NCBI GenBank assembly: GCA_000004695.1
Contig: CM000152.2
Coordinates: forward strand, 6,144,001 to 6,208,000
From: Dictyostelium discoideum
Taxonomy: Eukaryota
Direction of reading: 5' to 3'
Length of the DNA: 64,000 bases
This document shows positions 2,480-25,105 of the stretch, piece after piece. A model generated the notes under the pieces. It saw only the letters and a list, made by a program, of their open reading frames with translations, made no database searches and was not told the DNA's origin. Numbering within the stretch: the stretch's first letter is position 1; each line of letters opens with the position of its first letter. Both the position numbers and the translations under genes were made by a program.

Positions 2480-3080
2480 TTAATCACTTTCATCAAAAAT
2501 TTCTAAATCCAAAAAAACACCACCCGCAAAGATAAGAGAATCTTCATTTGTAAATACAAGTGTTGAATCGTTAACTGAAGATTCTGCTAAAAATTGAATT
2601 GCAAATTCTAATGATACTGGTGTTTTAAATATTTTTTGTTTACTTGTTGAAATTTTACTAATACTTGTAGTTCCTCTAGTAATAAATGCATATTTAACTT
2701 TAAAATCTTTAATCTTTTCTAAAATATCATTTGGTATTGATTTATATAATGTATCAAAAGTTAATGGACATTTTACTAAAATAAATATAAAAATAAAAAT
2801 AAAAATAAAAAAATAAGAAAATTTAAAATTTAAAATTTAAATTAATACATTAAAATTATAATAGTTAATAAATTTTTGAAAAAAATAAATGAATAAATAA
2901 ATGATATTTACCATTGTTTTCATTATTATTTATAGTACAATCGCTTTCATTATTTTCATGATTTCCATTTTCATTGCTATTATTATTTATATTATCATCA
3001 ATTGTTGAACCTGTCTCTCCACTTGATGATTCTAAACTAAATCTAATACCATTTGATTTTACTTTCTTTGGTCTTTCCAT
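2480..3080 (-). CDS. Small protein of about 154 aa with an acidic C-terminus ('...DLEIFDESD'), function unknown. Two exons (3080..2912 and 2775..2480) separated by one 136-bp AT intron.
   Basis: The 71-aa minus ORF (MERPKKVKSNGIRF...) runs into GTAAAT at about 2911. Downstream, an open minus-strand frame (KCPLTFDTLYKSIPNDILEKIKDFKVKYAFITRGTTSISK...LDLEIFDESD*) follows a TTTTAG acceptor at about 2776. The phase is consistent (1 nt + 2 nt). Confidence 0.45.
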
Positions 3081-3704
3081 GTCGTTCTAATTTTTTTATT
3101 TTTTTTTATTTATATATTTAAATTTGTTTTTTTTTTTTTTAATATTTATTTATTGATAAATATGCGTTGATTTTATGTTACAATTAATATTTGTTGTGTG
3201 TGTTTTTTTTTTTTTTTTTGAGTTGTTTTTGAAAATAAAAATACAATTGAGATTTATGTGGTCAGAGGTTTATTATTATTATTATTATTTTTTTTTTTTT
3301 TTTTTATTTTTATTATTATTTCGCAAAGATTTTAATTTATTTTTTATTTTTTTATTTTTTTATTTTTTTATTTTTAATAATTTTTTTATTTTTTTTATTT
3401 GAAATTAATTGATATGTTGGTATTTATAACGTATGATGATGGGGGTTGTGAATTTGTTCGTGTGGTTAGAGTTGCTATTAATAAAATTGCTATTGAAAAA
3501 AAAAAAAAAAAAAATGAAAAAAAAAAAAAAAAAAAAATTGAAAAAAAATAAAAATAAAAAAAAAAAATAAAAATAAAAAAAAAAAATCGAGGGCTGGAAA
3601 TTCAAAGAAAATAGAGACCAGGTCAAACAAAGATTTTTTTTTTTTTTTTTTTTGTAGTAAGAAATTATTTAATATTTTTTTAGTTTTTTTTTTTTTTTAA
3701 AGAC

Positions 3705-6679
3705 TTATTTTTTAGATTTTCTAAATGTTCTATACACAAAGATTTTGAAACGAAGGGATTTGGACAAGGCAATTTTTAAAATAATAATTGCAGAAATAAA
3801 AAATACAACAGAACCAACGATAATACCAGCTAATTGACCTTTAGTTAAAGATGATTCGGATGATGAGCAAATTGAATTTGGAGAATTAGAATTTACAGCT
3901 TGGTTATCTAATAAAAGTGAAAAATCAGGATCTATAGTTACAGAGGTTTCATATTGACCAACCACAATACCAATATACGATTGCACATTATTTTCATTTG
4001 ATATTGAATTTAATTTTGAATCTAATAATTCATTTGTGATTGTTACTATTTTCCCATCAACAATACCACGTTTTAAAAATCTACCATAAATACTATTACT
4101 TGAAACTTGAAGTTTAATATAATTTGAATTATCTAATGTTGTATCACCAAATTCTTTACCTGAACAAATATCATTTTCATTTGATTGAATTTGAGCTTCA
4201 ATTATAACTTGTAAATTATTTAATTTATTTGAGAATTTATATGATGATAATTCTACTGTATATTTAATTGTTGATGGATTCATTATTAATTCTTGATTTG
4301 CAAATGTAATATTACTTTTTTTTTCAAACCATTCTAATGTTACATTAATTGTTGTTGTTATGTTATTATTAATAATTGTTGATTGATAATTTAATATTGT
4401 TGATGAAATACTATTATAATACCATTTATCAATATAATGAATTTTAACTTGTTCACCATTGATTGAATTTACTTCTCTAATTGCTATAATTGATATATTA
4501 CTTTTAACTTGATAATTATTATTAACATTACTAGAATTATTATTGCTATTATCAATAACTGTAGTCAGTTTATCTTCTTTGGTTTTGGTTGTGGTATAAT
4601 TATAACTTTTGAGCTACAATCTAAACCAACATAAGGAGAATAACAAATACCACCTACATTTTCTTTACAATAACCTTGTTCCGAACTACTACATACTGGA
4701 TTACCTAAACAAATTTGAGGTTTATTAGTTGGTGTTGGTGTTGATGGGGTTGGAGTTGGAGTTGGAGTTGGGGTTGGGGTTGAAAATTGAAAATTATAAA
4801 TGGTTGGAGTAATTGTAAAATTATTAGAACTTTCAAGTTTAATTGTGTTATAAACTTCAATATTATTTTTAATAATAATTTCATTAGTATTGGTAACCCA
4901 AATTGAACAATATCATAAACAATTTCAAAAGCACCTTCTATAATTGACCCTGATATTAATTTATCAGAATAATATTGATTAAATCTTTGATCATCATTTG
5001 TTGGTATTTGAATAAATCATACCATATTTATCAAACTTGAAATCTAAGAAAAAACTTAAATTCTGTTAGAAAGATAACTTTAGAATCTATTATTTGTGGA
5101 ATTGATAATTCAATATTTGAATTTAATGCTGTGACAGATATATCTAAACCAACAGAACCTTCTGTTTTACATATATAACTATAATTTTTTTGAAGTTAAA
5201 CCAGATACTGGTACTGATATTCCTAATACATAATTTGGGTTACTACCTCTTAGAAATCCATATGGGAATGATTTAAACTATATTTCTGATTTCCATTATA
5301 GAATTGATTATATTCATGATTATATGGTGCTACTCCTACAGTATCCTCTATACTAAACATATTCATTATATCAATTTCAATTGGAACATTATAAAAACTT
5401 GAACTTGGAATTGGTGATCCTCCAATCACTATACAAATATAACTATTAATTTAAATGATTCATTTTATGTAATACATATATATATATATTAATAATACAT
5501 ACATTTTAAATTTGTTTTAAAATCAAAACTTTCAAATGTTGAATCTTCTTTTCTTCTTAAGAGTGTATCATTTCTTTTTTCAGAATTAGGTTGGACAAAA
5601 CAAATATAAGTCATTTTACCTAAATTACCATAAATCGGTTTTGAAATAGAGTAATAATAAATTCCTTGATTTAAAATTACTACTGGGTATACAACTCTTT
5701 GTAATAATGAACTTGATTGGAATGTTATAATAGTTCCTAAAAATTCGCCCTCAACTGAAGCACTTCCCAATGGATTTTGTTTTAAATTTAAAATTTCATG
5801 TGAATTTGTATTTCTACCAATATATTCCAAATATAAATATAAGCAAACAAAAAAATAAATAATAAATATGTAAATATAAATTCTTTTTTTTTTATTATTA
5901 TTATTTATTGTAATTTTATAAAATACTTACTTGTTGTATTGTATGGTACTAAAATTGTTAAATTTTTATTATTTGAAAAATTTAATTCTGTTTCCCAAAT
6001 TGAAAAGTTTGATGTTTTCAAAATATAATACTTTTCTGTATACTTTATACGAAACATACTTTGACCAAGTGATGTTATTTTAAATAAAGTAGAATCATAG
6101 AATTCACTGATACTAATAGAATCAGGAAAATCTTCTAATTTAAAGATTGATGAAAATTTTAATATTGAACTCCATGTCACATCTTGAATAATGATATATG
6201 AATTTACTTGAAAACCTATACAACAATTAATAAATAAAAAAATGAAAAATGTTACAAAAAATGAAAAGTGTTACAAAAAATAAAAAATGAATAATAAATA
6301 GTAAAAATAATAATTTAATTGATATTTAATATTTACCTTTACATTTAAAATCAATTGTTAAATTATCTTTTAATATATCATTATTTACAGAAAAGTTTAT
6401 TTGATTAGTCCCAACATAAACGTAACTTGTACAAGTAAATAAAGTTGCAGTATTATTTTGACTGGAAATAGAACAACCAATTCCAGAATTCAAATTATTA
6501 ATTGGTTCCGTTGAATTTGTAGCAAGAACAATAAAAACTGTATAGCAAATATTAGTTTTTGTTGTATAGAATTTATGGGTTTCACTTAAATCAAAAAGGG
6601 TGAACTCTTTTCCATTTACAAAAATAATTAAAAAAATTATTACAAAAAAAAAAATAGAAAATATTTTATTTTTAATCAT
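3705..6679 (-). pseudogene. Heavily decayed paralogue of the 5-exon IPT/EGF-like membrane-glycoprotein family. A signal-peptide exon (6326..6679) and the C-terminal EGF/TM part (3705..4283) are recognisable. The middle is riddled with deletions and stops.
   Basis: 3705..4283 translates almost identically to the C-terminus of the 841-aa ORF at 16620..19145 (…ICSGKEFGDTTLDNSNYIKLQVSSNSIYGRFLKRGIVDG…TM…KSKK). 4283..5450 aligns to copy 1 but has no ORF of 60 aa or longer and is about 1.4 kb shorter. 6326..6679 encodes a signal peptide plus a Cys-containing N-terminal segment similar to exon 1 of the other copies. Confidence 0.6.
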
Positions 6680-7207
6680 TTTTATTTTTACTAAAAAATA
6701 AAAATAAAAAAAAAAAAAAATAAAGTTATAATTAATATATTATTAATATTTTTTTTTTTAATCCTTTTTTTAAATAAAAAAAAAAAAAAAAAAAAAAAAT
6801 TATTTTTAACAGATATTTGTTCTTTGAAAATGAGAGGGTTAGCACAAAAAAAAAAAAAATATCTTAAAAAATCGTAAAAAAGTTTTTTATTTTTTTAATA
6901 TTATTGTTATTTAAAATATCAAAACATAAATAAATTGGCCTTTTAAAAAAAATAATGACAATGAAGAGTTTAAACTGATTCTCTCATTTATCTTTTTTTT
7001 TTTTTTTATATTTTTATTCTAGCCTTCAAAAAATCTTCAAAAGCCAATCATTTGAACCTAAATCAAAAAAGGTGGACTCTATTAAATTTACAAAAAATAA
7101 TTAAAAAACCTATTGCAAAAAAAAAAGATAATTTTTTAAATTTGATCTTACTTATAATAAAATATAAATAATAATAATAATAGTTGTTTTTTTATTTTTT
7201 ATTTTTT

Positions 7208-8251
7208 TTAATAACAAATAATAATAAAAAATATAAAAACAGTAATAATTTTAACAATTTGACCTTTGAATAAAAATGATAATGAAGAAGAAGAAGAAGA
7301 AGAAGAAGAAGTTGATGATTCACTATTTATTTCAGATAATGGTGAGCAAATTGAATTTTTTGAATTGGAATTTGCTGCTTTCTCTAATGAAAGTGAAAAA
7401 TCAGCATTGAAAATTAGACTTGATTGATAAAAAGGAACCGAAATACCAATATATGATTCCACATTATTTGCTTTGGAATTAAAATCAGTAGGATATAAAC
7501 TATTTACTATTGTTGGATAGTTTTCACCATCAGCCAAACAATTTATTGGGAATCTACCTAAAAGAGTATTGTTTGAAACTTGAAGTCTAACATATCTAGA
7601 ATCATCTGGTTCTATTGTATAACCAAATTCTTTACTTGAGCAAATAGGATTATTGGTTTCATTTAATTGGACTTGAACTTTAAATATAATTTGTAAAACA
7701 TTTAAATGGCCTCCAAAAGCAAATGGAGAGAGATTAACTGAATATTTTATTTTTGAAAATTCTTGATCTTCAATTAATTCTTGTATTACATTAACTGTTG
7801 TTGTTACACCACCTTTTTCAATTGTTGTTTGATAATTTAAAATTTTATATATTGAACTACCTGATATTCTCTGAATATTAAGATTATAACTAGTCACTGT
7901 TTCACCATAAACATCAAGTTCTCTGATTTCAGTTAATAAAATAACATATGGCGTTGTTGTTGGTGTTGGTGTTGTTGTTGGTGTTGGTGTTGGTGTTGGT
8001 GTTGGTGTTGGTGTTGGTGTTGGTGTTGGTATAATTATAACTATTGAAGTACAATCAATGCCTGTATAAGGTGTATAACAAATACAACCAATATTTTCTT
8101 TACAATAACCTTGTTCTGGTCCACCACATATTGGATTACCTCGACAATTTTGAAGTGAATTGGTTGGAGTTGTTGTTGGTGTTGGTCCTTGACCTCTAAT
8201 TAAAATAAAACAAAAGAAAAAAATAAAAAGGGTGGATAATCTGTAAAACAT
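7208..8251 (-). CDS. Compact single-exon secreted/type I membrane protein of about 348 aa. Order: signal peptide, Thr/Pro linker, one EGF-like Cys module, (PT)n linker, a roughly 200-aa juxtamembrane domain, TM helix, very short tail. It corresponds to the stand-alone C-terminal module of the large family.
   Basis: The likely start is the internal Met 'MFYRLSTLFIFFFCFILIRG', since the upstream part of the listed ORF is poly-K/F junk. It contains 'CRGNPICGGPEQGYCKENIGCICYTPYTGIDCTS', (PT)n, then 'EIRELD...VTSY...', and ends in a hydrophobic helix. This is homologous to 8994..10040 and to the C-terminal 330 aa of 16620..19145. Confidence 0.6.
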   Translation of the reverse strand: MFYRLSTLFIFFFCFILIRGQGPTPTTTPTNSLQNCRGNPICGGPEQGYCKENIGCICYTPYTGIDCTSIVIIIPTPTPTPTPTPTPTPTPTTTPTPTTTPYVILLTEIRELDVYGETVTSYNLNIQRISGSSIYKILNYQTTIEKGGVTTTVNVIQELIEDQEFSKIKYSVNLSPFAFGGHLNVLQIIFKVQVQLNETNNPICSSKEFGYTIEPDDSRYVRLQVSNNTLLGRFPINCLADGENYPTIVNSLYPTDFNSKANNVESYIGISVPFYQSSLIFNADFSLSLEKAANSNSKNSICSPLSEINSESSTSSSSSSSSSLSFLFKGQIVKIITVFIFFIIICY

Positions 8252-8557
8252 TTTTTTTTTTTTAACATAAAAAATAAAAATAAAAAAAAAAAAAAATTGA
8301 AAAACAAAAGTATTGAATAAAAAAAAGAAGTTTTCTTTTTGTTTTTTTTTTTGAATTTTTTTTTTTAGAATTTGCATTTTTTTCTAAGGGGAGCTTCATA
8401 GAAAATAAAAAATTAAAAGTAAAAAAAAAAAGAGGCGACAACCCACCAGCACTGCATAAAATTACTTTTCTCCACTTAAATGCTGAAATTATTACACCAA
8501 ACACCTTAATTTTTTCACAAAGAAGATATTTTAGAATTTGAAAGAATATTTAGATAT

Positions 8558-8607
<50 letters not shown>

Positions 8608-8993
8608 AAGGTGTAAATAATGGTAGTTAATTAAATTAATTTTTTTTATTTTATATTTTTTTCATTTAATTATACACTTATATTTTTTTTTTTCAGTTTT
8701 AAAAATTTTTAGTTCTAATTATTTGAATCTTTTAATCCAAAAAATAAAAGAAGTCTTGTTATTTTTTAAAAAAAAAAAAAAAAAAAAATCCCAATCAACT
8801 GCACTTAAATCAAATAATGGTTAATTCTATACCATTTACAAAAACAATTAAAAAACTTATTTCAAAAAAAAAAAAGATAATATTTTAAATTAATAATTAC
8901 TAATAATAAAATTAAAAATAAAAATAAAAATAATAATAGTTTTTTTTTTATTTTTTTTTATTTTTTTTTGCCTTTTTATTTAATTGTTCACAA

Positions 8994-10040
8994 TTAACAA
9001 ATAATTATTAAAAATATAAAAACAGTAATAATTTTAACAAATTGACCTTTGAATAAAAATGATGATAATGAAGAAGAAGAAGAAGAAGAAGTTAATGACG
9101 ATTCACTATTTTCAGATAATGATGAGGATGGAGATGAACTAGATTGTGATTCTTCAGATGGTGAGCAAACTGAATTTGGTGAATTAGAATTTGCTGCTTT
9201 CCCTAGTGAAAATGAAAAATCAGAATCAAAAATTATCCATGATTGATAATTAGGAATTGAAATACCAATATGTGATTCCACATTATTGGCTTTGGATTTC
9301 AAATCGCCAGAATCTAAACTAATTGATGATGTTGATATGATTTTAGCATCAGCGAAACAACTATTTGGGAATCTACTTAAAAGAGTACTATTTGCAACTT
9401 GAAGTCTAACATAGCTAGAATCATCTGGTTGTGTTGTAAAAGCATATTCTTTACTCGAGCAAATAGTCGTATTACTAGTTTCATTTAATTGAACTTGTAC
9501 TTTAAATATAATTTGTAAAACATTTAAAGCACTTTGAAAAGCATATTGTGAGAGATTAACTGAATATTTTATTTTTGTTAATTCTTGATCTTCAAGTAAT
9601 TCTTTTGTTACATTAACTCTTGTTGTTACACCACCTTGTAGAATTGTTGTTTGATAATATGATATATTGTTTAAATTTCCTATTATTCCCCAATTAGTAA
9701 GAATATGACTAGTCACTGTTTTACCATCAAAATCAAGTTCTCTGATTTCAGTTATTAAAATAACATATTCACTATTACTATCATCATCGATTTCAGTGTT
9801 TGGTGCCTCTTGTGATGATATTGGTGTTGGTATAATTATAACTTTTGAAGTACAATCTAAACCTACATAAGGTGAATAACAAACACAACTATTTTCGAAA
9901 CAATAACCTTGTTCTGGTCCACCACATATTGGATTACCTTGACAATTTTGAAGTGAATCAGTTGGCGTTGTTGTTGGTGTTGCTTTAATTAAAACAAAAT
10001 AAAAGAAAAAAATAAAAAGGAAGGATAATCTGGAAACCAT
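8994..10040 (-). CDS. Second compact EGF-like/TM family member (348 aa, single exon). Order: signal peptide, 'CQGNPICGGPEQGYCFENSCVCYSPYVGLDCTS', acidic insert, juxtamembrane domain, TM.
   Basis: Full ORF with an N-terminal signal peptide (MVSRLSFLFIFFFYFVLIKA), a C-terminal hydrophobic anchor, and block-wise identity to 7208..8251 (…QTTI..GGVTT.VNV..EL.EDQE..KIKYSVNLS..AF…). Confidence 0.65.
   Translation of the reverse strand: MVSRLSFLFIFFFYFVLIKATPTTTPTDSLQNCQGNPICGGPEQGYCFENSCVCYSPYVGLDCTSKVIIIPTPISSQEAPNTEIDDDSNSEYVILITEIRELDFDGKTVTSHILTNWGIIGNLNNISYYQTTILQGGVTTRVNVTKELLEDQELTKIKYSVNLSQYAFQSALNVLQIIFKVQVQLNETSNTTICSSKEYAFTTQPDDSSYVRLQVANSTLLSRFPNSCFADAKIISTSSISLDSGDLKSKANNVESHIGISIPNYQSWIIFDSDFSFSLGKAANSNSPNSVCSPSEESQSSSSPSSSLSENSESSLTSSSSSSSLSSFLFKGQFVKIITVFIFLIIIC
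9049..9246 (+). other. Antisense low-complexity ORF (poly-Glu/Asp), not a gene.
   Basis: It lies wholly inside the Ser-rich region of the minus-strand CDS 8994..10040, and its composition is the complement of (TCT/TCA)n. Confidence 0.7.
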
Positions 10041-11211: not shown

Positions 11212-11891
11212 TTAACAAGATATTTTTGAGATCTTGTTACAATCCCAAATTGCAAAGCTGAAAACTGAGTTTAAAATACTATCTTGATTAAATAGATTAT
11301 AAAAATCACTATCTTGAAATGTTTTTGGATCGATTAATGTAAAACCAATTGGTAAATTCAGGTATTTATCTATATTATTAAAATTAAAATATATTATATT
11401 ATCAACTATTAGATCTGTAATATCTACATCATTAAACATAAAAGAAATATCTTTTTAATCTTTTAAATTATCAACACCTATAGATTATTTAATTTTTTTT
11501 AATTATTTAATTAGTTGGTAAATTATATTAAAATTTTCAATTTTTTTGATTTAACTTACTTTTTAATTGTATTGATGATAAAATTACTTGAATATTATGT
11601 GAATAAATGGAGCCTTCTCGATTTGGACTATAAAGTGAAAATGCATCTAAATGATTAAAAAAACCATCTGGTTATTTGTTGAACCATATTTAACGGCATC
11701 GTATAATATTTCAAAAACACCATTTTTAATATTACCAGGAACCAATGACTCTACATGAAATTCCAAAACATTATTATCAATAATTTATACCATATGTATC
11801 TAATATTATAAATCTAATAAAATAATAGAAATTACTTAAATATATGGTTTCATATGATTTTAAGATTGGTATAGTAGCGTCATTGACTATA
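11212..11891 (-). pseudogene. Fragment of a family member (start of exon 5 'MFNDVDITDLIVDNIIYFNFNNID...', intron 4 and the 3' part of exon 4), interrupted at 11891 by a TIR element. A 60-bp tail of the same exon resumes at 14087..14150.
   Basis: The 75-aa ORF 11212..11439 is about 75% identical to the start of 16620..19145. 11440..11885 aligns to the copy 1 intron 4/exon 4 sequence (19184..19620) with indels. Homology stops abruptly at the element boundary and at about 11235. Confidence 0.55.
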
Positions 11892-12397
11892 TGTCCCATG
11901 CCAAAATTACCATATTAATTTCAGCAGCCATATTAATTTTGGCATGGGACTTAGGTCTGCCAAAATTACCTTATTAATTTCAGCAGCCATATTAATTTCA
12001 GCATGTACATAGCTGCCAAAATTAATATGGTAATTTTGGCATAGAAAAAAAAAAAGTCAAAGTCATTTAATTAATAATCATCTCAAATATAAACAAAATT
12101 TTAGTACTAAAATTAATATTATTATTATTTTTATTTTAATAATTATAATAATAAAAAAAAAAAAAAAAAATTTTCATATTATTTTATTTATATCTTTTAT
12201 TTATTTTTATCTTTTTATTTTTATTATTAATTTTATAATTTATTTTCATTTCTTTTTTTTTTAGTTGAAAAAAATTTTTTTATTATTCATTTATTTCTAA
12301 GGCTAACAAAAAAAAAAAATTAAAAATAAAAAAAAAAAATAAAATAAAAAAAAAAAAAAAAAAATTAAAATAATTTTTTTTTTTTAATTTTTTTTTT

Positions 12398-13064
12398 TTA
12401 ATTATCTACTCTTCTACTTACTCTTTTGTTACTAACAGATGAAGTTTCGTTTGAAAATCTTTTGGTGAAAAAATCAGCATCAGATTGTAATTGATTAGCT
12501 CTTTTTTTACCCGTTTTGTTTTTGTTTGATTGAGTTGTGATTCCACCATTATTGGAAGTTGTTGCAGCTTCATGTGTTGATCTAACTTCGGTGGTAGAGT
12601 GCTCGATTGCTTTTCCAACTAGGTCATCTGTTGATTTTCTTTTGGTTATTTCGATATCCCTTTGCAATTTATTTTTACTTGAGAGTTTGGTGGCCTCTAT
12701 TCTAGAAGTAGGCTCAGTATTGTAATAAGCCTTTATAATAGCAGAATGACTATCTGCTTTATAATGATTACTGATGTGCTGTTGACACTGGTTTTGATTA
12801 ATCATATGAGAGACACCATCTTCATCTTTGTTAAGCCTAACCTTCTCTATAATCTTCACTAAGTCTTTTGGGTACCAATTTTTTCTTTTTATCTTTATCA
12901 ATATAAAACACTTCTTTAATAGTTGCCGTACCATATTCTACATTCTCAACAACATACTGTTTATCCAAAATGTTTTTCCAATAGCTTGTATTTTGTCCAC
13001 TCAATTTGGTATTATGAAATTTATAATCTATTTTAAATTTTACATCTTCGTCATATTTTTCCAA
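12398..13064 (-). CDS. ORF(s) carried inside the TIR element. A 75-aa ORF (12837..13064) and a 178-aa ORF (12398..12934) overlap in different frames and are probably one frameshifted or spliced gene. The product is basic and Ser/Thr/Lys-rich, with no recognisable DDE or other transposase motif.
   Basis: Two adjacent minus-strand ORFs with non-repetitive composition (MEKYDEDVKFKIDYKFHNTKL...; ...NWYPKDLVKIIEKVRLNKDEDGVSHMINQNQ...) lie between the inverted repeats. No match to any transposase family I can recognise by eye. Confidence 0.3.
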
Positions 13065-13354
13065 GAGTTTTTTTAATTTATTTTTATTATTTTTTCAATT
13101 TCTGTTGCAGAAAGTTGATTATTTAATTTATTGTCTTTACTGAAGACCATTTTTTGGAACGAAAACTTTAAAAAAATAAAAAAATAAAAAAAAAAATACT
13201 TTTTTTTTTTAATTTTTTTTTTTATATTTTTTTTTTTATATTTTTTTTTTTTAAATTTTTTTTTTTAATTTTTTTTTTTTATTTTATTTTTTTAAAGTTT
13301 CGAACAATTATATATAAAAAAAAAGTAAAAGATATCCCTTCGGTTAATTAAATA

Positions 13355-13362
13355 ATAGTAAT

Positions 13363-13406
<44 letters not shown>

Positions 13407-13408
13407 TA

Positions 13409-13500
<92 letters not shown>
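13355..13500. repeat. (AAT)n microsatellite of about 145 bp inside the TIR element.
   Basis: Direct reading: aataataataat… with one interruption. Confidence 0.9.
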
Positions 13501-13505
<5 letters not shown>

Positions 13506-14371
13506 CTTAAATATACAAAAAAAAAATAAAAAAATAAAAAAATAAAAAAAATAAAAAAAAAAAAATAGAATGAAATGAAATAAAATAAAATAAAAAAAAG
13601 AAATACAGAATTTCTTTAAAGAAACTTATTTCGAAATTGTTTAAACAATCATACAGTTTAAAATTAAATAAATTGTTTTAAACCACCACTTTTTTTGAAC
13701 ACATGAAAATAAATAAGAAATAAAAATAAAAAGATAAAAAAAGATTTTTTTTTTTTTTTTTATTTTATAATTATTCTTGTCGTCAGTATTGTTACTATAA
13801 TTAATCCCATGAGTTTTTTTTTATTATTATTTTTAATTCTTTTATATTTGAGATGATTATTATTAATTAAATGACTTTGAGTTTTTTTTTTTATTTTTCT
13901 ATGCCCAAAATTACCATATTAATTTCAGCAGCCATATTAATTTCAGCCTAAAATAGTTGGTCTGTGCATGCCAAAATTAATATGGCTGCTGAAATTAATA
14001 TGGTAATTCTAGCAGACATAAGTCCCATGCCAAAATTACCATATTAATTTCAGCAGCCATATTAATTTTGGCATGGGACAACTATACTCGAAGGTGTCAC
14101 TTGTGACTTTAGATAGAAACATTTGAAAATATAGTAAAAATGGATAAAAAAAAAAGAAAATAAAATAATTAAAAAAAAACCAAATAATAAAAAGTTTCAT
14201 TCAATATATATATATTTTTTTAGTATTTATTTTATTTTAATAAAATATGTTAAAAATTATAATGTTTCAATTTTTAATATATTTATTATTTTTTTTTTAT
14301 TATTTTTTATTTTATTTTTTAATATATTTTGTTGTAGGGAATTTTTTTTGATATTTCGCTTTCTAAACGGC

Positions 14372-14733: not shown

Positions 14734-14925
14734 AATTTGAGAGTCATCTTACTCTCAAATTATTTAAATAATTTAATTTGAGAGTCATCTTACTCTCAAA
14801 TTATTTAAATAAATTTTTTATTTTTTTATTTTTTTTTTAATAATTTTTAAATAAATTGTTATTTAATTTTTATTAATTTATTTAAATAATTTGAGAGTCA
14901 TCTTACTCTCAAATTATTTAAAATA
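14734..14925. repeat. Three copies (two tandem, one 75 bp further on) of a 38-bp unit 'AATTTGAGAGTCATCTTACTCTCAAATTATTTAAATAA'. Each unit contains its own 9-bp inverted repeat (TTTGAGAGT/ACTCTCAAA). The last copy abuts the truncation point of a gene copy.
   Basis: Units are at 14734..14772, 14775..14813 and 14888..14925. The 3' half of the unit (ctcAAATTATTTAAAatacatac) resembles the end of intron 3 in intact copy 1 (ctctAATTATTTAAAatacatac at 20056..20078). Confidence 0.65.
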
Positions 14926-16619: not shown

Positions 16620-19183
16620 TCAATAAGTCTTCTTTGATTTTTTGAAGATTTTATAAATAATGATTCTAATATGAATTGATTTTGAGAAGAGAATTATTCC
16701 AACAATTATAACTAAAACTATGAAAAATACAATAGAACCAACAATAATACCAGCTAGTTGACTTTTGGTTAAAGATGATCCGGATGATGAGCAAATTGAA
16801 TTTGGGGAATTAGAATTTACAGCTTGATTATCTAATAAAAGTGAAAAATCAGGATCTATAATTACAGAGGTTTCATATTGACCAACCACAATACCAATAT
16901 ATGATTGTACATTATTTTCATTTGATATTGAATTTAATTTTGAATCTAATAATTCATTTGCGATTGTTACTGTTTCACCATCAACAATACCACGTTTTAA
17001 GAATCTACCATAAATACTATTACTTGAAACTTGAAGTTTAATATAATTTGAATTATCTAATGTTGTATCACCAAATTCTTTACCTGAACAAATATCTTTT
17101 TCATTTGATTGAATTTGAGCTTCAATTATAACTTGTAAATTATTTAATTTATTTGAGAATTTATATGATGATAATTCTACTGTATATTTAATTGTTGATG
17201 GATTCATTATTAATTCTTGATTTGCAAATGTAATATTACTTTTTTTTTCAAACCATTCTAATGTTACATTAATTGTTGTTGTTATGTTATTATTTATAAT
17301 TGTTGATTGATAATTTGATATTGTTGATGAAATACTATTATAATACCATTTATCAATATAATGAATTTTAACTTGTTCACCATTGATTGAGTTAACTTCT
17401 CTAATTGCTATAATTGATATGTTACTTGTAACTTGGTAATTATTATTAACATTACTAGAATTATTATTTTTATTATCAATAATTGTAGTTGGTTTATCTT
17501 CATTTGGTTTTGGTTGTGGTATAATTATAACTTTAGAGCTACAATCTAAGCCAACATAAGGAGAAAAACAAATACAACCAACATTTTCTTTACAATAACC
17601 TTTTTCTGAACCGCCACATACTGGATTACCTAAACAAATTTGAGGTTTATTAGTTGGTGTTGGTGTTGGAGAAATGGTACTTGTTGGTGTTGGAGTTGGT
17701 GCTGAATAATTGAAATAATAAACTTTTGGGAAAATAGTAAAAGTGTTTGATAGAATAGTTGGTTGCTGAATATTGGTTAAATGTACATTGATTGAATCGT
17801 TTGTTGGTTTAATATTTTTAATTAAAATTACAGAATCACTCGGTACTGTCATTGCTGAAGAATAAGATTCACCATTACTTGATAATATCACAACTTTATT
17901 GGTTGATTTAAAACCTCTACCATATAACCAAAGATCACCACCATCATTATCTATAGCAGATGAGTCAGTAATGATTGGTTGAGTTACTGAAAACTCTTTT
18001 GTTTCTACAAACCAAGTAAAACCTGAATCTTTTAAATCACTTGCGCTATAACCTCTATATGATCCACCTCTATTAATAAATCCATAAACTGAAATTAAAA
18101 ATCCATATGGATGTGAAAATCCAATTGGTACTTCCATTGTGCATGTGTATTCAATATCTGTTCTATTCTTTGTAACAATGGTTGAAATACATTCATGAAT
18201 TCTTGAATTCATATCTGTTATATATACTATTGGATATTGATCATCTTTTAAACCGTCTAAATCCTGTGCATCAAAATCAAATACTATTAATCTATCTAAT
18301 GACCCAACATCAATAGATGATCTTGATACCCAAAATCTTTTTAACTCTGGTAGTGGTGAATCAATTTGATTACACATATTTAATGTTGAAACTTGTAATA
18401 TTGACATATCATTAAGATAATTAATAAATGGATTCGCACTTGAGTCAAGGCTAATTTGCCCATCCAATTCAATATTTGTAAGACGTTTATAATATTTATT
18501 TACATTACCAAATGTATCAATGAAAACTGCATAATAAATTTCATAATTTTGAGGTACACAATCATTTAAAATATATGGTATACTTATTATATAATTTCCT
18601 TTCCATTTATCACCACTACCAACTACCATATCACTTAATTCCAATGTATAATTATATAATGAACTATCAATCGAACCTCTAATAGTAACATATCCATCTT
18701 TGAAACCATTAATTTCATCTTCAATTGTAAATAACCATCCTAATGTTGTGTCTGGATATTTAACTATACTTGTAACTATTGGACCATAACTATCGAATTT
18801 TGTATTATCAATTCTTAATTGGTATTCATCAGATAATTGAGTATTAAGTATATAATTCTCTTTATTAAATATTAACATCCAATCTAAAACACCTGGTGAT
18901 GTATTTGCTGGTATTTTAAATTTAATATAAAATCTTGAATTTATTTCATCCCAAATTGCAAAACTGTAAACTGAGTTTAAAATACTAACTTGATTATATT
19001 CATTAATAAAATCACTATCTTGTAGTGTTCTTGGGTCAGTTAATGTAAAACCAATTGGTAAATTCTTATAATTATCTATATTATTAAAACTAAAATATAT
19101 TATATTATCAACTATTTGATCTGTAATATCAACATCATTAAACATAAAAGAAATATCTTTTATATCTTTTAAATGGTCAACAC
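16620..19183 (-). CDS. Exon 5 (about 855 aa) of family copy 1, a large type I membrane glycoprotein. It has a roughly 550-aa ectodomain including an IPT/TIG-like segment ('PIITDSSAIDNDGGDLWLYGRGFKSTNKVVILS'), (TP)n linkers, the EGF-like module 'CLGNPVCGGSEKGYCKENVGCICFSPYVGLDCSS', a juxtamembrane domain, a TM helix and a basic tail 'KIFKKSKKTY'.
   Basis: An 841-aa ORF is preceded in frame by a CTATAG acceptor at about 19184. Domain calls come from cysteine spacing and hydropathy read from the translation. Paralogues elsewhere in the window conserve the same blocks. Confidence 0.7.
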
Positions 19184-19265
19184 CTATAGATTATTTAATT
19201 TTTTTTAATTATTTAATTAGTTGGTAAATTATATTAAAATTTTCAATTTTTTCAATTTAACTTAC

Positions 19266-20833
19266 TTTTTAATTGTATTGAAGGGAAAATTACTTGAATA
19301 GTATGTGATAAAATGGAGTAGTCTCGATTTGGACTATAAACTGAAGATGAGTCTAAGTGATTATAAAAACTTATTGAATTTTTTGTTGAACCATATTTAA
19401 CGGCATCGTATAATATTTCAAAAACACCATTTTTAATATCACCAGAAATCAATGAGTCTACATGAAATTCCAAAACATTATTATCAATAATAGTTTGAAA
19501 ATAATTTAAACCATATGTATCTGATATCATAAATCTAATTAAATAATTAAAATTATTTAAATATATGGTTTCATATGATTTTAAGATTGGTTTAGTTGTG
19601 TCATTGACAAAACTTGAAGGTGTCACTCGCAACTCTGGGCCATTTCCAGAAAGAAAGGTCATATGCAAGTAAAAATAATTTTTATTTGAAAAACCACGAG
19701 TTGGTAAAGACATTTTTATTTTGTAGTTTAAATTGTTTCCACTTGAAAATCCAAATGGAAATACTTGATATTTATTATCACCAAATATACCATCCCCATA
19801 GGAATACTTTAAGTATTGAGAATCATACTTGAATCCAATGTCACTATAAGACAATTCAAATGAATATAATGACATTGAACTAGTACTATTATCAACAGTT
19901 GTATTTATTATTGAAGATATTAAACCTTGATCAATTTGGCCTTTTCCAAAAAATTAAAAAAATTAAAAAAACAAGAAAATAAAAAAAAACATGAATTAGA
20001 ATTGTGTTTTAATTTTAATTAATAATAACAATAATAAAAATAATAATAATTTGCACTCTAATTATTTAAAATACATACTTGTATAGTTTATAAAAATTGG
20101 AATACCTTGATAAGCTGTGTTATTTATTTGTTCATAAAGAGAATAATTTTGTAAACCATCGTTTACAACCGAAAGGTAACTAATGTATGTCATATTACCT
20201 ATTGATCCAGAAATAGGTCTTGGTAAAGTTGAATACACCGAGTTAATTAAAACCAATGGATTAATTGGTCTTTGTAATGATGATACTGAATTAAATTTTA
20301 TAACACTTCCAAACAATAACATAATTTCACAATTGCGGCCATTTGGAAATTGGATTAATTCTACAATTTCTTCATTCTTATTACTATTTTTATATTCTTT
20401 TAAATTAATACAAACTATATTAATAAAATGAATTTTTAAAAAAAAAAAAAAAAAAAAATTAATTTTAAAAAATAATAATAATAAAATCTTACTTGTTATA
20501 TTATATGGTACTGAAATTGTTATTATTGTACCAGAATTACTAAAAGATATTTCCCAATTAGAGTTTGATAATCTTGGAATATAAAATTTTTCATAATATC
20601 GAATTCTATAATAATTTTTACCAAGTGATGTTAAATCAAATGAATAATAACTATCAATAGTAGTAATTATAGTTGAATCTAATAAACCATTTAGTTTAAC
20701 AATTGATGAAAATTTATTAACTATACTCCATGTTACTTCTTGTATTATTTCAATATTAATTTCATATCCTTATTATATTAATATTAAAATAGTAATAGTA
20801 ATAATAATAAATTGTATTAGTTATATATTTTGG

Positions 20834-20893
<60 letters not shown>

Positions 20894-21274
20894 CAGATTT
20901 GAGATTTATAATTCCTTTTACATTCATAATAAAATAAAAGGGAACTTTTTGAAATATCATTGTTAACATTAAAGGTTGTTGAATATTTGAAAAAATTAAG
21001 AGTTGCATATTCTGAGCAAAAAAAAGTTGATGAAGTTATATTCCTTCTATAAATAAACAAAACTGATTGTCACTACCTAATGTTTGTATAGAATCTGCAG
21101 TTTCATTTATTTTTGAACAAAGAATAAACGTTGGTATGAAGAACAATATGGATGTAATGTTTGTTCTGGATAGAATATATATATTTTATCTAGATAAGTA
21201 ATTGAATAATCTTGTCCTTTTATTAATAAAATAAATGTTAATAAAAAAAGCCTGATTATTCCAAGTTTAGCCAT
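19266..21274 (-). CDS. Upstream exons 1-4 of the same gene. Exon 4 is 19266..19940, exon 3 is 20079..20414, exon 2 is 20493..20768 and exon 1 is about 20895..21274 with the signal peptide MAKLGIIRLFLL… Exons 2-4 are open and phase-consistent. Exon 1 shows 1-nt and 4-nt indels relative to the paralogues, which create stops.
   Basis: Donors are GTAAGT (19265), GTATGT (20078) and GTAAGA (20492). Acceptors are AG at 19941, 20415 and 20769. Exon lengths satisfy phase (675, 336, 276). Exon 1 reads '...SSYQRLFFVQK*' because of a 1-nt shorter poly-A run than copy 3. A second 1-nt loss and a +4 insertion follow. Confidence 0.45.
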
Positions 21275-21774
21275 TCTAAAAGAAGAATTGTTTGATGGTT
21301 TTTTTTTATTATTTTCAGTTTGAACAAAAAAAATATGGTGAAAAATAAAAAATATTATAAAAAAAAAAAAAGTTTTTTGTAAAAACCAAATAAAAAAATA
21401 ATTTTTTTTTTTTATTTTTTTTTGTAAAAATAAGATATTTATAAAAGGGGCATTTGATCAAAAAAAAAAAAAAAAATCATACACAAAATTTTTTGAGATA
21501 TTTATTTTTATAAAAAATATCTCAAAAAAAAAAAAAGTTAACAGTAATATTTTTTATTTGTTTATTTTTAATGTTTTTGGTAATAAAAATTAATAAAAAC
21601 ATTTAAAATTATATTATATTTATTAAATAAAAAAAAAAAAAAAAAAAATAACTATTTCTTAATGTTTTGAACAAAAATTTTTTTTTTTTTTTTATTTAAT
21701 ATATATAATATAATTTTAATTTTAATGTTTTTATTAATTTTTATTACCAAAGAAGTCTCCTAAGGAAATTGCTG

Positions 21775-21918: not shown

Positions 21919-24900
21919 TCAATAAGACTTTTTTGATTTTTTGAAGATTTTATAAATAATGATTCTAATACGCACTGATTTTGAGAAGAGAATTATTCCA
22001 ACAATTATAACTAAAACAATGAAAAATACAATAGAACCGACAATAATACCAGCTAGTTGACTTTTGGTTAAAGATGATTCGGATGATGAGCAAATTGAAT
22101 TTGGAGAATTAGAATTTACAGCTTGATTATCTAATAAAAGTGAAAAATCAGGATCTATAGTTACAGAGGTTTCATATTGACCAACCACAATACCAATATA
22201 TGATTGTACATTATTTTCATTTGATATTGAATTTAATTTTGAATCTAATAATTCATTGGTGACTGCCACTGTTTTACCATCAACAATACCACGTTTTAAG
22301 AATCTACCATAAATACTATTACTTGAAACTTGAAGTTTAATATAATTTGAATTATCTAATGTTGTATCACCAAATTCTTTACCTGAACAAATATCATTTG
22401 TCAATATAATGAATTTTAACTTGTTCACCATTGATTGAATTTACTTCTCTAATTGCTATAATTGATATATTACTTTTAATTTGATAATTATTAACATTAC
22501 TAGAATTACTATTGCTATTATCAATAGCTGTAGTTGGTTTATCTTCATTTGGTTTTGGTTGTGGTATAGTAATAACTTTAGAGCTACAATCTAAGCCAAC
22601 ATAAGGAGAATAACAAATACAACCAACATTTTCTTTACAATAACCTTGTTTTGAACCACTACATACTGGATTACCTAAACAAATTTGAGGTTTATTAGTT
22701 GGTGTTGGTGTTTAAGTTGGAGTTGAAGTTTGAGTTTGAGTGGGTGTTGGTGTTGGAGTTGGAGTTGGTACCGAGTAATTAAAATAATAAACTTTTGGGA
22801 AAATAGTAAAAGTATTTGATAGAATAGTTGGTTGCAGTGTGAAAATCCAATTGGTACTTCCATTGTGCATGTGTATTCAATATCTGTTCTATTCTTTGTA
22901 ACAATGGTTGATATACATTCATGAATTCTTGAATTCATATCTGTTATATAAACTATTGGATATTGGTCATCTTTTAAACCGTCTAAATCATGTGCATCAA
23001 AATCAAACGTTATTAATCTATCTAATGACCCAACATCAATAGATGATCTTGATACCCAAAATCTTTTTAACTCTGGTAGTGGTGAATCAATTTGATTACA
23101 CATATTTAATGTTGAAACTTGTAATATTGACATATCATTAAGATAATTAATAAATGGATTCGCACTTGAGTCCTTGTAATTTGGTGGATTTAAATCAAAA
23201 TTTGTTTGACGTTTATAATATTTATTTCTATTACCAAATGAATCAATGAGAACTGCATAATAAATTTCGTAATTTTGAAATACAAAATCGTTTAAAATAT
23301 ATGGTATACTTATTATATAATCTCCTTTCCATTTATCACCGCTACCAACTACCATATCACTTAATTCCAATGTATAATTATATAATGAACTATCTACTGA
23401 ACCTCTAATAGTAACATATCCATCTTTGAAACCATTAATTTCATCTTCAATTGTAAATAACCATCCTAGTGTTGTTGTCAAGCTATGATCTTGATATTTA
23501 ACTATAATTGTAACTATTGGACCATAACTATCGAATTTTGTATTATCAATTCTTAATTGGTATTCATCAGGTAATTGAGTATTAAGAAAATGATTCTCTT
23601 TATTAAATACCAACATCCAATCTAAAACACCTGGTGATGTATTTGCTGGTATTTTAAATTTAATATAAAATCTTGAATTGATTTCATCCCAAATTGCAAA
23701 GCTGTAAACTGAATTTAAAGTATTAAATACTTCAAAGTTAATTCCATTATAGAAGTCACTATCTTGTAATGTTCTTGGATCGATTAATGTAAAACGAATT
23801 GGTAAATTCTTATAATTATCTATATTATTAAAACTAAAATACATTATATTATCAACTATTTGATCTGTAATATCAACATCATTAAACATAAAAGAAATAT
23901 CTTTTACATCTTTTAAATAATTAACATCTACATATTATTATTTATTAAGAATAAAGTAATAATAAATTATAGTTAATAGTTTTATTCATAAATATCGTCA
24001 TTTTTTTTTTTTTTTTTTTTTTACTTACTTTGTTCTATAGTTGGTAAATTAATTCTTAAATTTGGAGTTTCAATAGAGAAAGGTTGATTTTGGTTAAATA
24101 ACGATGACTTATCTAAATGATTATAAAAATAATATGAATTACTTGTTGAACCATATTTAATGACATCATAAAATATTTCGAAAACACCATTTTTAATATC
24201 ACCAAAAACCAATGACTCTACATAAAATTTAATTATTTTATTATCAATATTGACTTGAATAAAATTCAAACCATATGTATCTGATATTGTAAATCTAATT
24301 AAATAATTAAAATTATTTAAATAAATAGTATCAAATTCATTTAAAGTTGGTATGAAATTATTATTATTATTATTATTGATTAAATTTGAATGTGAAACTT
24401 GTAATGCCAAACCATTACTACCACCATAATCTGTCATTTGCAAAATAAAATATTGTTGACTTGAAAAACCACGATTTGGAACAGACATTTTCATAGTGTA
24501 GTTTAAATTATTTCCACTTGAAAATCCAAATGGAAATACTTTGTATTCATTCTCAGATTCTCTATTACCTCCTCCTCCTCCACTAAAATAGGTATACCAT
24601 TGAGAATCATATGTGAAATTAAAATCACTATACATTAATTCTAATGTATAAAATGGCATTGAACTATTACTATAATCAACACTTGTATACTTTATTAACT
24701 GTTTTAAAGAATAAGAATTTAAAACTTTTTATAACATTGGTTAGACCGATAATGATAAAAATAATGATAATATTAAAAAATACATACTTGTATAGTTTGT
24801 TGGAATTTGAATAGTTTGTAATGTTGAATCATCTTTTTGTTTATAAAGGGTATAATATTGTAAATAACTATATAAAACTGAAAGGTAATCAATGTAAGTG

Positions 24901-25105
24901 ATATTACCAATTGATCCAGATATTGGTCTTGGTAAAGATGATATTAAGATGTTGTTATTTAAAACTAATGGATTAACTGGTCTTTGTAATGATGATGTTG
25001 ATTTAAATTTTATAACACTTCCAAAAATATTTAAAACTTTACAAGTTCCATCTTTTGGAAATTGAACTAATTCATTAATCTCTTCACTATTTTTAAATTC
25101 TATAG

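Follow-up and report, generated by a model that had tools for sequence, protein, structure and literature searches.

The DNA transposons described in Dictyostelium discoideum include thug-S and thug-T (Glockner et al. 2001, as cited in PMC5633606 and PMC4894637) as well as Tdd-4 and Tdd-5, which belong to Ginger2/Tdd and have reported lengths of 3,839 bp (TDD-4) and 3,783 bp (TDD-5) and a target site duplication (TSD) of 5 bp (Bao 2010, PMC2836005). According to a 2017 review, the transposases of the Dictyostelium DNA transposons show no similarity to known transposases (PMC5633606). The multicopy microRNA (miRNA) loci of D. discoideum have been placed in thug-S, from which small RNAs dependent on DrnB and RbdB are derived (PMC4894637, PMC6161686), with only weak Northern signals in vegetative cells (PMC4894637). 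Here we analyze a 64,000-nucleotide stretch of the D. discoideum genome (assembly GCA_000004695.1, contig CM000152.2, positions 6,144,001 to 6,208,000; hereinafter the window, G+C content 22%), in which positions 11892-14080 of the minus strand are occupied by a 2,189-bp element. This element is very likely a copy of the catalogued non-autonomous transposon thug-S, cut down from a 3.8-kb element that encodes an integrase.

The 178-amino acid (aa) open reading frame (ORF) of the window element belongs to a 90%-identity cluster that includes the AX4 gene DDB_G0271154, tabulated (as DDB_G0271154_TE) under the label “thugS element” in a 2025 paper (PMC12405889). Another member of the same cluster, DDB_G0270824, consists, by its sequence, of the thugS ORF fused to the Tdd-4 ORF and was described in the same terms in 2012 (PMC3386910). 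Because the ORF clusters with the “thugS element” gene and the element carries the mir-7131 precursor described below, the element is assigned to thug-S. It shares with thug-S the ORF cluster (identity of at least 90%), the multicopy state, the size of about 2 kb and the hairpin-forming ends that give rise to multicopy miRNAs, and is judged a member; there is no established difference, the window locus having an expanded (AAT)n tract. The view of the sequence-only reading of this DNA that the element resembled no recognised family and could belong to an uncharacterised one is thus overturned, and the comparison with dictyostelid elements including thug that it proposed leads, through the ORF cluster and mir-7131, to thug-S. 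The thug-S family is already known; the potentially new part is the autonomous, integrase-encoding partner.

The evidence for this partner comes from the decayed transposase ORF of the window element (12398-13150, minus strand), which is broken into open pieces at 13150-13073, 13094-12837 and 12934-12398. Reconstructed across its two frameshifts, the ORF encodes 252 aa with an isoelectric point of 9.6 and no catalytic motif, much as the sequence-only reading had it (a basic ORF of about 250 aa, possibly frameshifted, without DDE motifs). A Pfam scan of the reconstructed protein produced only a sub-threshold match to DUF424, and its protein matches come from Dictyostelium only. Two of these matches, P0002 and P0004, start with the same N-terminal sequence as the window ORF and continue into a Pfam rve integrase core. 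In the family alignment, the window ORF corresponds to the first ~165 and the last ~85 residues of a ~600-aa protein, the DDE core and a further C-terminal region being gone. In nucleotide terms, taking nucleotides 1191-2964 (the two breakpoints) out of the long copy at locus L003 gives the window element, and the 2-kb form is defined by this internal deletion of 1,773 bp. The junction maps to 12677-12682 (minus strand) by protein alignment and nucleotide breakpoints and lies, near 12680, at a short CAAG-like homology; with breakpoints marked by slashes, the long form reads ...KLSK/AHLKDNP...(integrase)...AETSK/NKLQRD and the window copy ...KLSSKNKLQRD. The deletion removes the whole catalytic core, which bears out the earlier view of the element as a non-autonomous derivative. 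One frameshift, at ...LVPKRLSEDYREG*, is common to all four 2-kb copies but is not found in the long form; the 2-kb copies thus received it from a master that was already defective, and the ORF remnant is not a maintained gene.

The long form is represented by two complete copies. The copy at locus L005 (6026-9822, GCA_054859355.1) is 3,797 bp long, retains both ends and contains a 553-codon open frame, and the L003 copy is 3,780 bp long after removal of a nested insertion of ~6.07 kb and contains a 470-codon frame that is unbroken from MVFSK... through the core. The core matches the Pfam rve domain with E=1.8e-16 (P0004) and 1.2e-13 (P0007), and alignment to the prototype foamy virus (PFV) integrase matches the D, D and E residues in FDTCY, CDNG and KIERWN, with a spacing of 35 residues between the second D and the E (DD35E). 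No Integrase_H2C2 or zf-H2C2 match was detected in P0004, P0007 or P0008 at E values up to 0.1, whereas Pfam finds the H2C2 finger in 18 of the 40 nearest outside relatives; the conserved residues of the long-form family are H-x6-C-x6-H-x5-H. A profile search against 1.84 billion representative proteins retrieved five sequences with E <=1e-30, all from Dictyostelium assemblies, beyond which the scores fall to E ~1e-19 to 1e-14, in the range of generic rve proteins with Gypsy, Copia, IS3, OTU-linked and bacterial-transposase architectures according to Pfam. Cluster look-ups on the nearest outside relatives returned no informative names, protein P0003 was not placed on any contig, and AlphaFold2 run on the five-sequence family alignment gave a mean pLDDT of 31.7 and no usable model. 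In the searchable literature, which does not extend to Glockner 2001, there is no description of a 3.8-kb integrase-encoding partner or of a link between thug and an integrase. The L003 copy additionally contains, at element coordinates ~2120-2813, a segment of ~700 bp, located between ...KKYPPEDV and AFLEFKDVEF..., that is present neither in L005 nor in the 1.8-kb type described below and may be either an intron or a further small insertion. One paper mentions “the intron of thug-S” as the location of a miRNA-like RNA (PMC4894637).

Further copies were collected from public contigs fetched via the element ORF and its relatives, all of which, contigs and proteins alike, come from D. discoideum or “cf. 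discoideum.” Public D. discoideum assemblies yielded nine more complete insertions that share these termini, each flanked by its own perfect 6-bp TSD. These are the 2-kb copies at L004 (1,980 bp, ATTAAC), L006 (1,975 bp, GTTGCA) and L007 (1,955 bp, TATAAC); the ~1.8-kb copies at L008 (2981-4781; GTTATT), L009 (CATAGT), L010 (TATATT) and L012 (CGCACA); and the long copies at L003 (AATAAG) and L005 (TATGGA). Together with ACTATA in the window, the TSD is 6 bp in 10/10 insertions and none reaches 7 bp, against an estimated chance of ~0.0013 per element for a 6-mer match at this base composition; the TSDs have a G+C content of 27% and no consensus. The sequence-only reading had called for a TSD check in other copies and worried that the termini might occur only here: although the 64-kb window contains no second copy of the element, the same termini recur at other loci, and 9/9 further insertions have a perfect 6-bp TSD of their own. 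A 5-bp TSD with a shifted boundary was considered and rejected, as it fits the window copy only with asymmetric termini and does not hold for the set of ten insertions. Pairwise identity among the 2-kb copies is 96.8-99.0% (97.8-98.4% between the window copy and the three others). A diverged subfamily consisting of L005 and L002, the latter with its right end outside the fetched locus, is ~80-84% identical and has the same TGTCCCATGCC terminus.

The 1.8-kb type (L008-L012) corresponds to the long form minus nucleotides 641-2833; its four complete copies, each with a 6-bp TSD, are 96.4-99.2% identical. Our guess is that these relatives possibly represent thug-T. The AX4 gene models DDB_G0273375, DDB_G0287579 and DDB_G0290953 derive from this type or a close relative. 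Locus L006 also contains, at 1292-1429, a 138-bp miniature element made up of nothing but two thug-like ends, TGTTCCATGCC...GGCATGGGGCA; no TSD can be recognised, and the element could be an ancient derivative resembling a miniature inverted-repeat transposable element. Two tRNA genes, L004 2061-2134 and L003 2907-2977, lie ~0.9 kb and ~4 kb from thug insertions; this proximity is probably either a coincidence or an instance of the typical tendency of D. discoideum transposons to cluster around tRNA genes.

In the window, the left terminus of the element, TGTCCCATGCC, starts at 11892 and the right terminus, GGCATGGGACA, occupies 14070-14080, each with a single occurrence in the 64 kb; the gene being on the minus strand, the 5' end of the element is at 14080. 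The TSD copies, ACTATA, are at 11886-11891 and 14081-14086. The inverted-repeat arms span ~202 bp at the 3' end (11892-12093, with repeated TGCCAAAATTA and ATTAATTTCAGC motifs) and ~240 bp at the 5' end (13841-14080). Each arm terminates in a 59-nucleotide (nt) palindrome, located at 11892-11950 (a 17-bp stem and a ~24-nt loop; DNA fold of -17.5 kcal/mol, z -6.4) and at 14022-14080 (-17.9 kcal/mol, z -7.6), and in DNA folding none of 200 shuffles folded as well as either of them. A second, inner hairpin of the 3' arm is at 11958-12041 (150-nt fold of -40.3 kcal/mol, z -10.5), and the 5' non-coding part of the element contains an (AAT)50.7 microsatellite (13351-13501, by TRF), the expansion of which accounts for the length of the window copy, 2,189 bp vs 1,955-1,980 bp for the other 2-kb copies. 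The exact termini with their perfect 6-bp ACTATA duplication, the palindromic ends of ~60 bp with a 24-nt loop, the inverted sub-terminal sequence and the interior AAT repeat had all been noticed in the sequence-only reading and hold up in these measurements.

The element interrupts the coding sequence of a decayed gene of a paralogous family. Over 660 bp, the left flank (11242-11887) shares 88.7% identity with a paralogue at 18948-19608; its identity to a third paralogue, located near 24 kb, is 76.8%. The intact paralogue contains the empty site at 19601-19627 (minus strand), within the open reading frame ...VTPSSFVNDTT...: the junction reads gtcattgacAAAActtgaaggtgtcac in this paralogue and, when the element and one ACTATA are removed, gtcattgacTATActcgaaggtgtcac at the filled site, so that the lengths agree. 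The paralogue carries ACAAAA at the TSD-equivalent position (19607-19612) and no ACTATA. To the right of the insertion, similarity to the paralogue extends over ~30 bp only and resumes at 14908; given this loss of similarity and the in-frame stops in the interrupted copy, “decayed family member” is an accurate description. Thus, what had been read from the sequence, that is, an insertion into a family gene fragment and an uninterrupted paralogue showing the empty site, stands, the junction lengths matching at 19600-19627, and the doubt raised with it, that ACTATA had already been present twice, is removed by the paralogous site. The tandem paralogues occupy 16620-21400 and ~23686-24936 of the window, and the orthologous gene models at locus L001 carry the domains DUF7743, DUF7035, DUF7034, DUF8390 and DUF7949 of a large family. 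The same insertion is present in GCA_054883475.1 (record CM142509.1, chromosome-scale), with a flank identity of 99.6%, and the 178-aa window ORF is encoded there as well. At this locus (L001), (AAT)n is ~188 bp shorter than in the window, a difference that could reflect microsatellite instability or an assembly difference.

Each arm contains two adjacent units of ~59 bp (for the 3' arm, TRF reports a 59-bp period with 2.2 copies over 11899-12024), and each unit is itself palindromic, consisting of a TGCCAAAATTA stem, a ~24-nt loop with TTCAGCAGCCAT and the returning stem. At the 3' end of the element (left in the window), the two loops are in direct orientation, whereas at the 5' end (right) the outer loop is flipped. 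The terminal palindromes thus have loops that point the same way at both ends instead of being inverted, a feature missed in the earlier reading. It follows that only the right end forms the 87-nt near-perfect hairpin that lies between the terminal and inner units of the 5' arm (13977-14065) and is the mir-7131 precursor: its RNA fold has a free energy of -58.4 kcal/mol (z -14.7), and no such fold is obtained for the equivalent stretch at the left (11907-11995; z -1.3). The Rfam family RF03716 (mir-7131) matches 13977-14065 on both strands, scoring 98.9 bits (minus) and 95.8 bits (plus) where the gathering threshold is 74, and a match is found at the same position, one locus each, in ten other loci with this end type. 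The eight complete copies examined all show this loop arrangement, whereas the diverged L005/L002 subfamily lacks the outer unit and has no mir-7131 match despite the same TGTCCCATGCC terminus. Several public gene models start within thug termini (window 11892-11899; L001 11031; proteins P0003, P0034 and P0168). The ATG of GGCATGGGACA opens a 1,531-aa gene model downstream of the insertion, and the terminal hairpin, when read inward, gives “MAAEINMVILAWDL,” the N-terminus found in several “hypothetical proteins” of AX4. Gene models of this kind are probably annotation artefacts.

Tdd-4 and Tdd-5 share with this element the host, an autonomous form of ~3.8 kb, TG...CA ends, terminal inverted repeats (TIRs) of 200-300 bp, an rve DD35E integrase and internally deleted non-autonomous copies. 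Derivation of the window element from one of them by deletion is a rival reading. The near-coincidence in length (3,780-3,797 bp for the long form) and the combination of rve integrase, TG...CA termini and long TIRs speak for such an origin, but it is effectively refuted by the proteins and the TSDs. The long-form core is only 26-31% identical to TDD4 and TDD5 over ~105 aa (BLASTP, with the TDD4 and TDD5 protein sequences from the supplement of Bao 2010, PMC2836005), the N-terminal regions are unrelated, and Pfam detects no H2C2 finger in the long form. The reported 5-bp TSD differs from the 6 bp in 10/10 thug insertions, and the same contrast is seen within one genome, where the Tdd-4-like element nested in L003 has a 5-bp TSD, GATGA. 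This nested element (L003 10094-16159, element coordinates 3021-9090, TGTTGTAGGG...CCCTACAACA) is 96% identical to TDD4 over the first 51 aligned residues and, at ~6.07 kb, exceeds the published 3.8-kb Tdd-4. Equating the long partner with Tdd-5, as its 3.78 kb and the adjacent AX4 genes DDB_G0290953/DDB_G0290955 suggested, is ruled out by the TDD5 sequence in the supplement. The thug ends, TGTCC...GGACA, have the TG...CA and the TGT of the Ginger2/Tdd consensus TGTNR, with C rather than a purine as the fifth base, and a TSD of 6 bp in 10/10 insertions differs from those that characterize Ginger2 (4 bp in metazoans, 5 bp in Tdd-4/5). The thug family would work like Ginger/Tdd but departs from Ginger2 in two defining features, the H2C2 finger and the TSD. 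GingerRoot elements (Cerbin et al. 2019, PMC6839031), which we compare by their description only, resemble thug in integrase-related cut-and-paste transposition, a 6-bp TSD, TIRs of more than 100 bp and the lack of a strong target consensus, but have TA...TA rather than TG...CA ends and reside in lycophytes, bryophytes and animals. With Ds, a derivative of Ac, and KP, a P-element derivative, which belong to other transposase superfamilies, thug-S shares the retention of both ends, the loss of the catalytic region by one internal deletion and presumed mobilisation in trans; the frameshifts in its remnant ORF make a KP-like repressor role unlikely.

The hairpin invites a different view, namely, that the locus is primarily a host miRNA gene, mir-7131, with the transposon features incidental or fossil. 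The above-threshold Rfam match on both strands, the extreme stability of the hairpin and the DrnB/RbdB-dependent small RNAs of thug-S fit such a gene, but the element is multicopy with fresh TSDs, and the hairpin is a part of its terminal repeat, results simply from the adjacency of two 59-bp units whose loops are oppositely oriented, and is missing from the diverged L005/L002 subfamily that has the same termini; with only weak Northern signals in vegetative cells, we consider a host gene improbable. The palindromic ends could also be those of a hairpin-ended replicative element (rolling-hairpin or telomere-resolvase-like) rather than of a cut-and-paste transposon, and the flipped loop at one end recalls the flip/flop termini of parvoviruses. 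Flip/flop termini are rejected, given that the eight complete copies all have one and the same loop orientation rather than alternating ones; furthermore, every copy is integrated with a 6-bp TSD, and the partner codes for a DDE integrase but for no replication protein, leaving a replicative element with next to no plausibility. The favoured reading is that of a thug-S copy derived by deletion from an integrase-encoding transposon.

Under this scenario, the ancestor was a 3.8-kb element with a single ~600-aa ORF composed of a family-specific N-terminal region, an rve DD35E core, a C-terminal region and a basic tail. The 1,773-bp deletion took away the core and the C-terminal region but kept both arms, the promoter-proximal region and the ORF remnant, which gained frameshifts later. 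The long-form transposase is predicted to bind the repeated TGCCAAAATTA and ATTAATTTCAGC motifs of the arms and, in the manner of retroviral and IS3-type integrases, might cut at the TG...CA ends and join these to target cuts staggered by 6 bp, thus mobilising thug-S in trans. According to the literature, RNA transcribed through the 5' arm folds into the 87-nt hairpin, and small RNAs are made from thug-S hairpins by the Dicer-like DrnB/RbdB machinery. More tentatively, as a possibility rather than a probability, we suggest that the thug elements are deletion derivatives of an undescribed autonomous “thug-L” of 3.8 kb with one intronless ~600-aa ORF, an rve DD35E core without H2C2, a private N-terminal region and strict 6-bp TSDs. 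Such an element might form a third isolated integrase-type lineage alongside Tdd-4 and Tdd-5, and duplication of a palindromic 59-bp arm unit, the loop being flipped only at one end, may have made the mir-7131 precursor.

Some points weigh against this reading. The L003 long copy is broken by the nested Tdd-4-like insertion and L005 has frameshifts in A-runs, although these disturb only the first ~55 codons; hence no demonstrably intact source of transposase was found among the relatives. The window copy is non-autonomous and was presumably moved in trans, but no transposition was observed. Two sources support the name thug-S, the dictyBase label of a gene as given in a paper and the miRNA link. 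The miRBase family ddi-mir-7131a-d is the only multicopy miRNA family known in D. discoideum, and from this together with the papers on the multicopy loci we infer mir-7131 to be the thug-S-derived family. A literature search for “mir-7131” returned no paper, and the supplements of PMC4894637 and PMC6161686 contain nothing on thug or 7131.

For the window, the result amounts to routine repeat annotation, that is, one copy of thug-S in a decayed paralogue. Beyond the window, thug-S and its 1.8-kb relative can be tied to a coding-competent 3.8-kb partner with a retroviral-type DD35E integrase, and the anatomy of the ends explains how a transposon end becomes a Dictyostelium miRNA precursor. The link to the partner would give the thug family both a mechanism and a place among Ginger1, Ginger2/Tdd, GingerRoot and Polinton.

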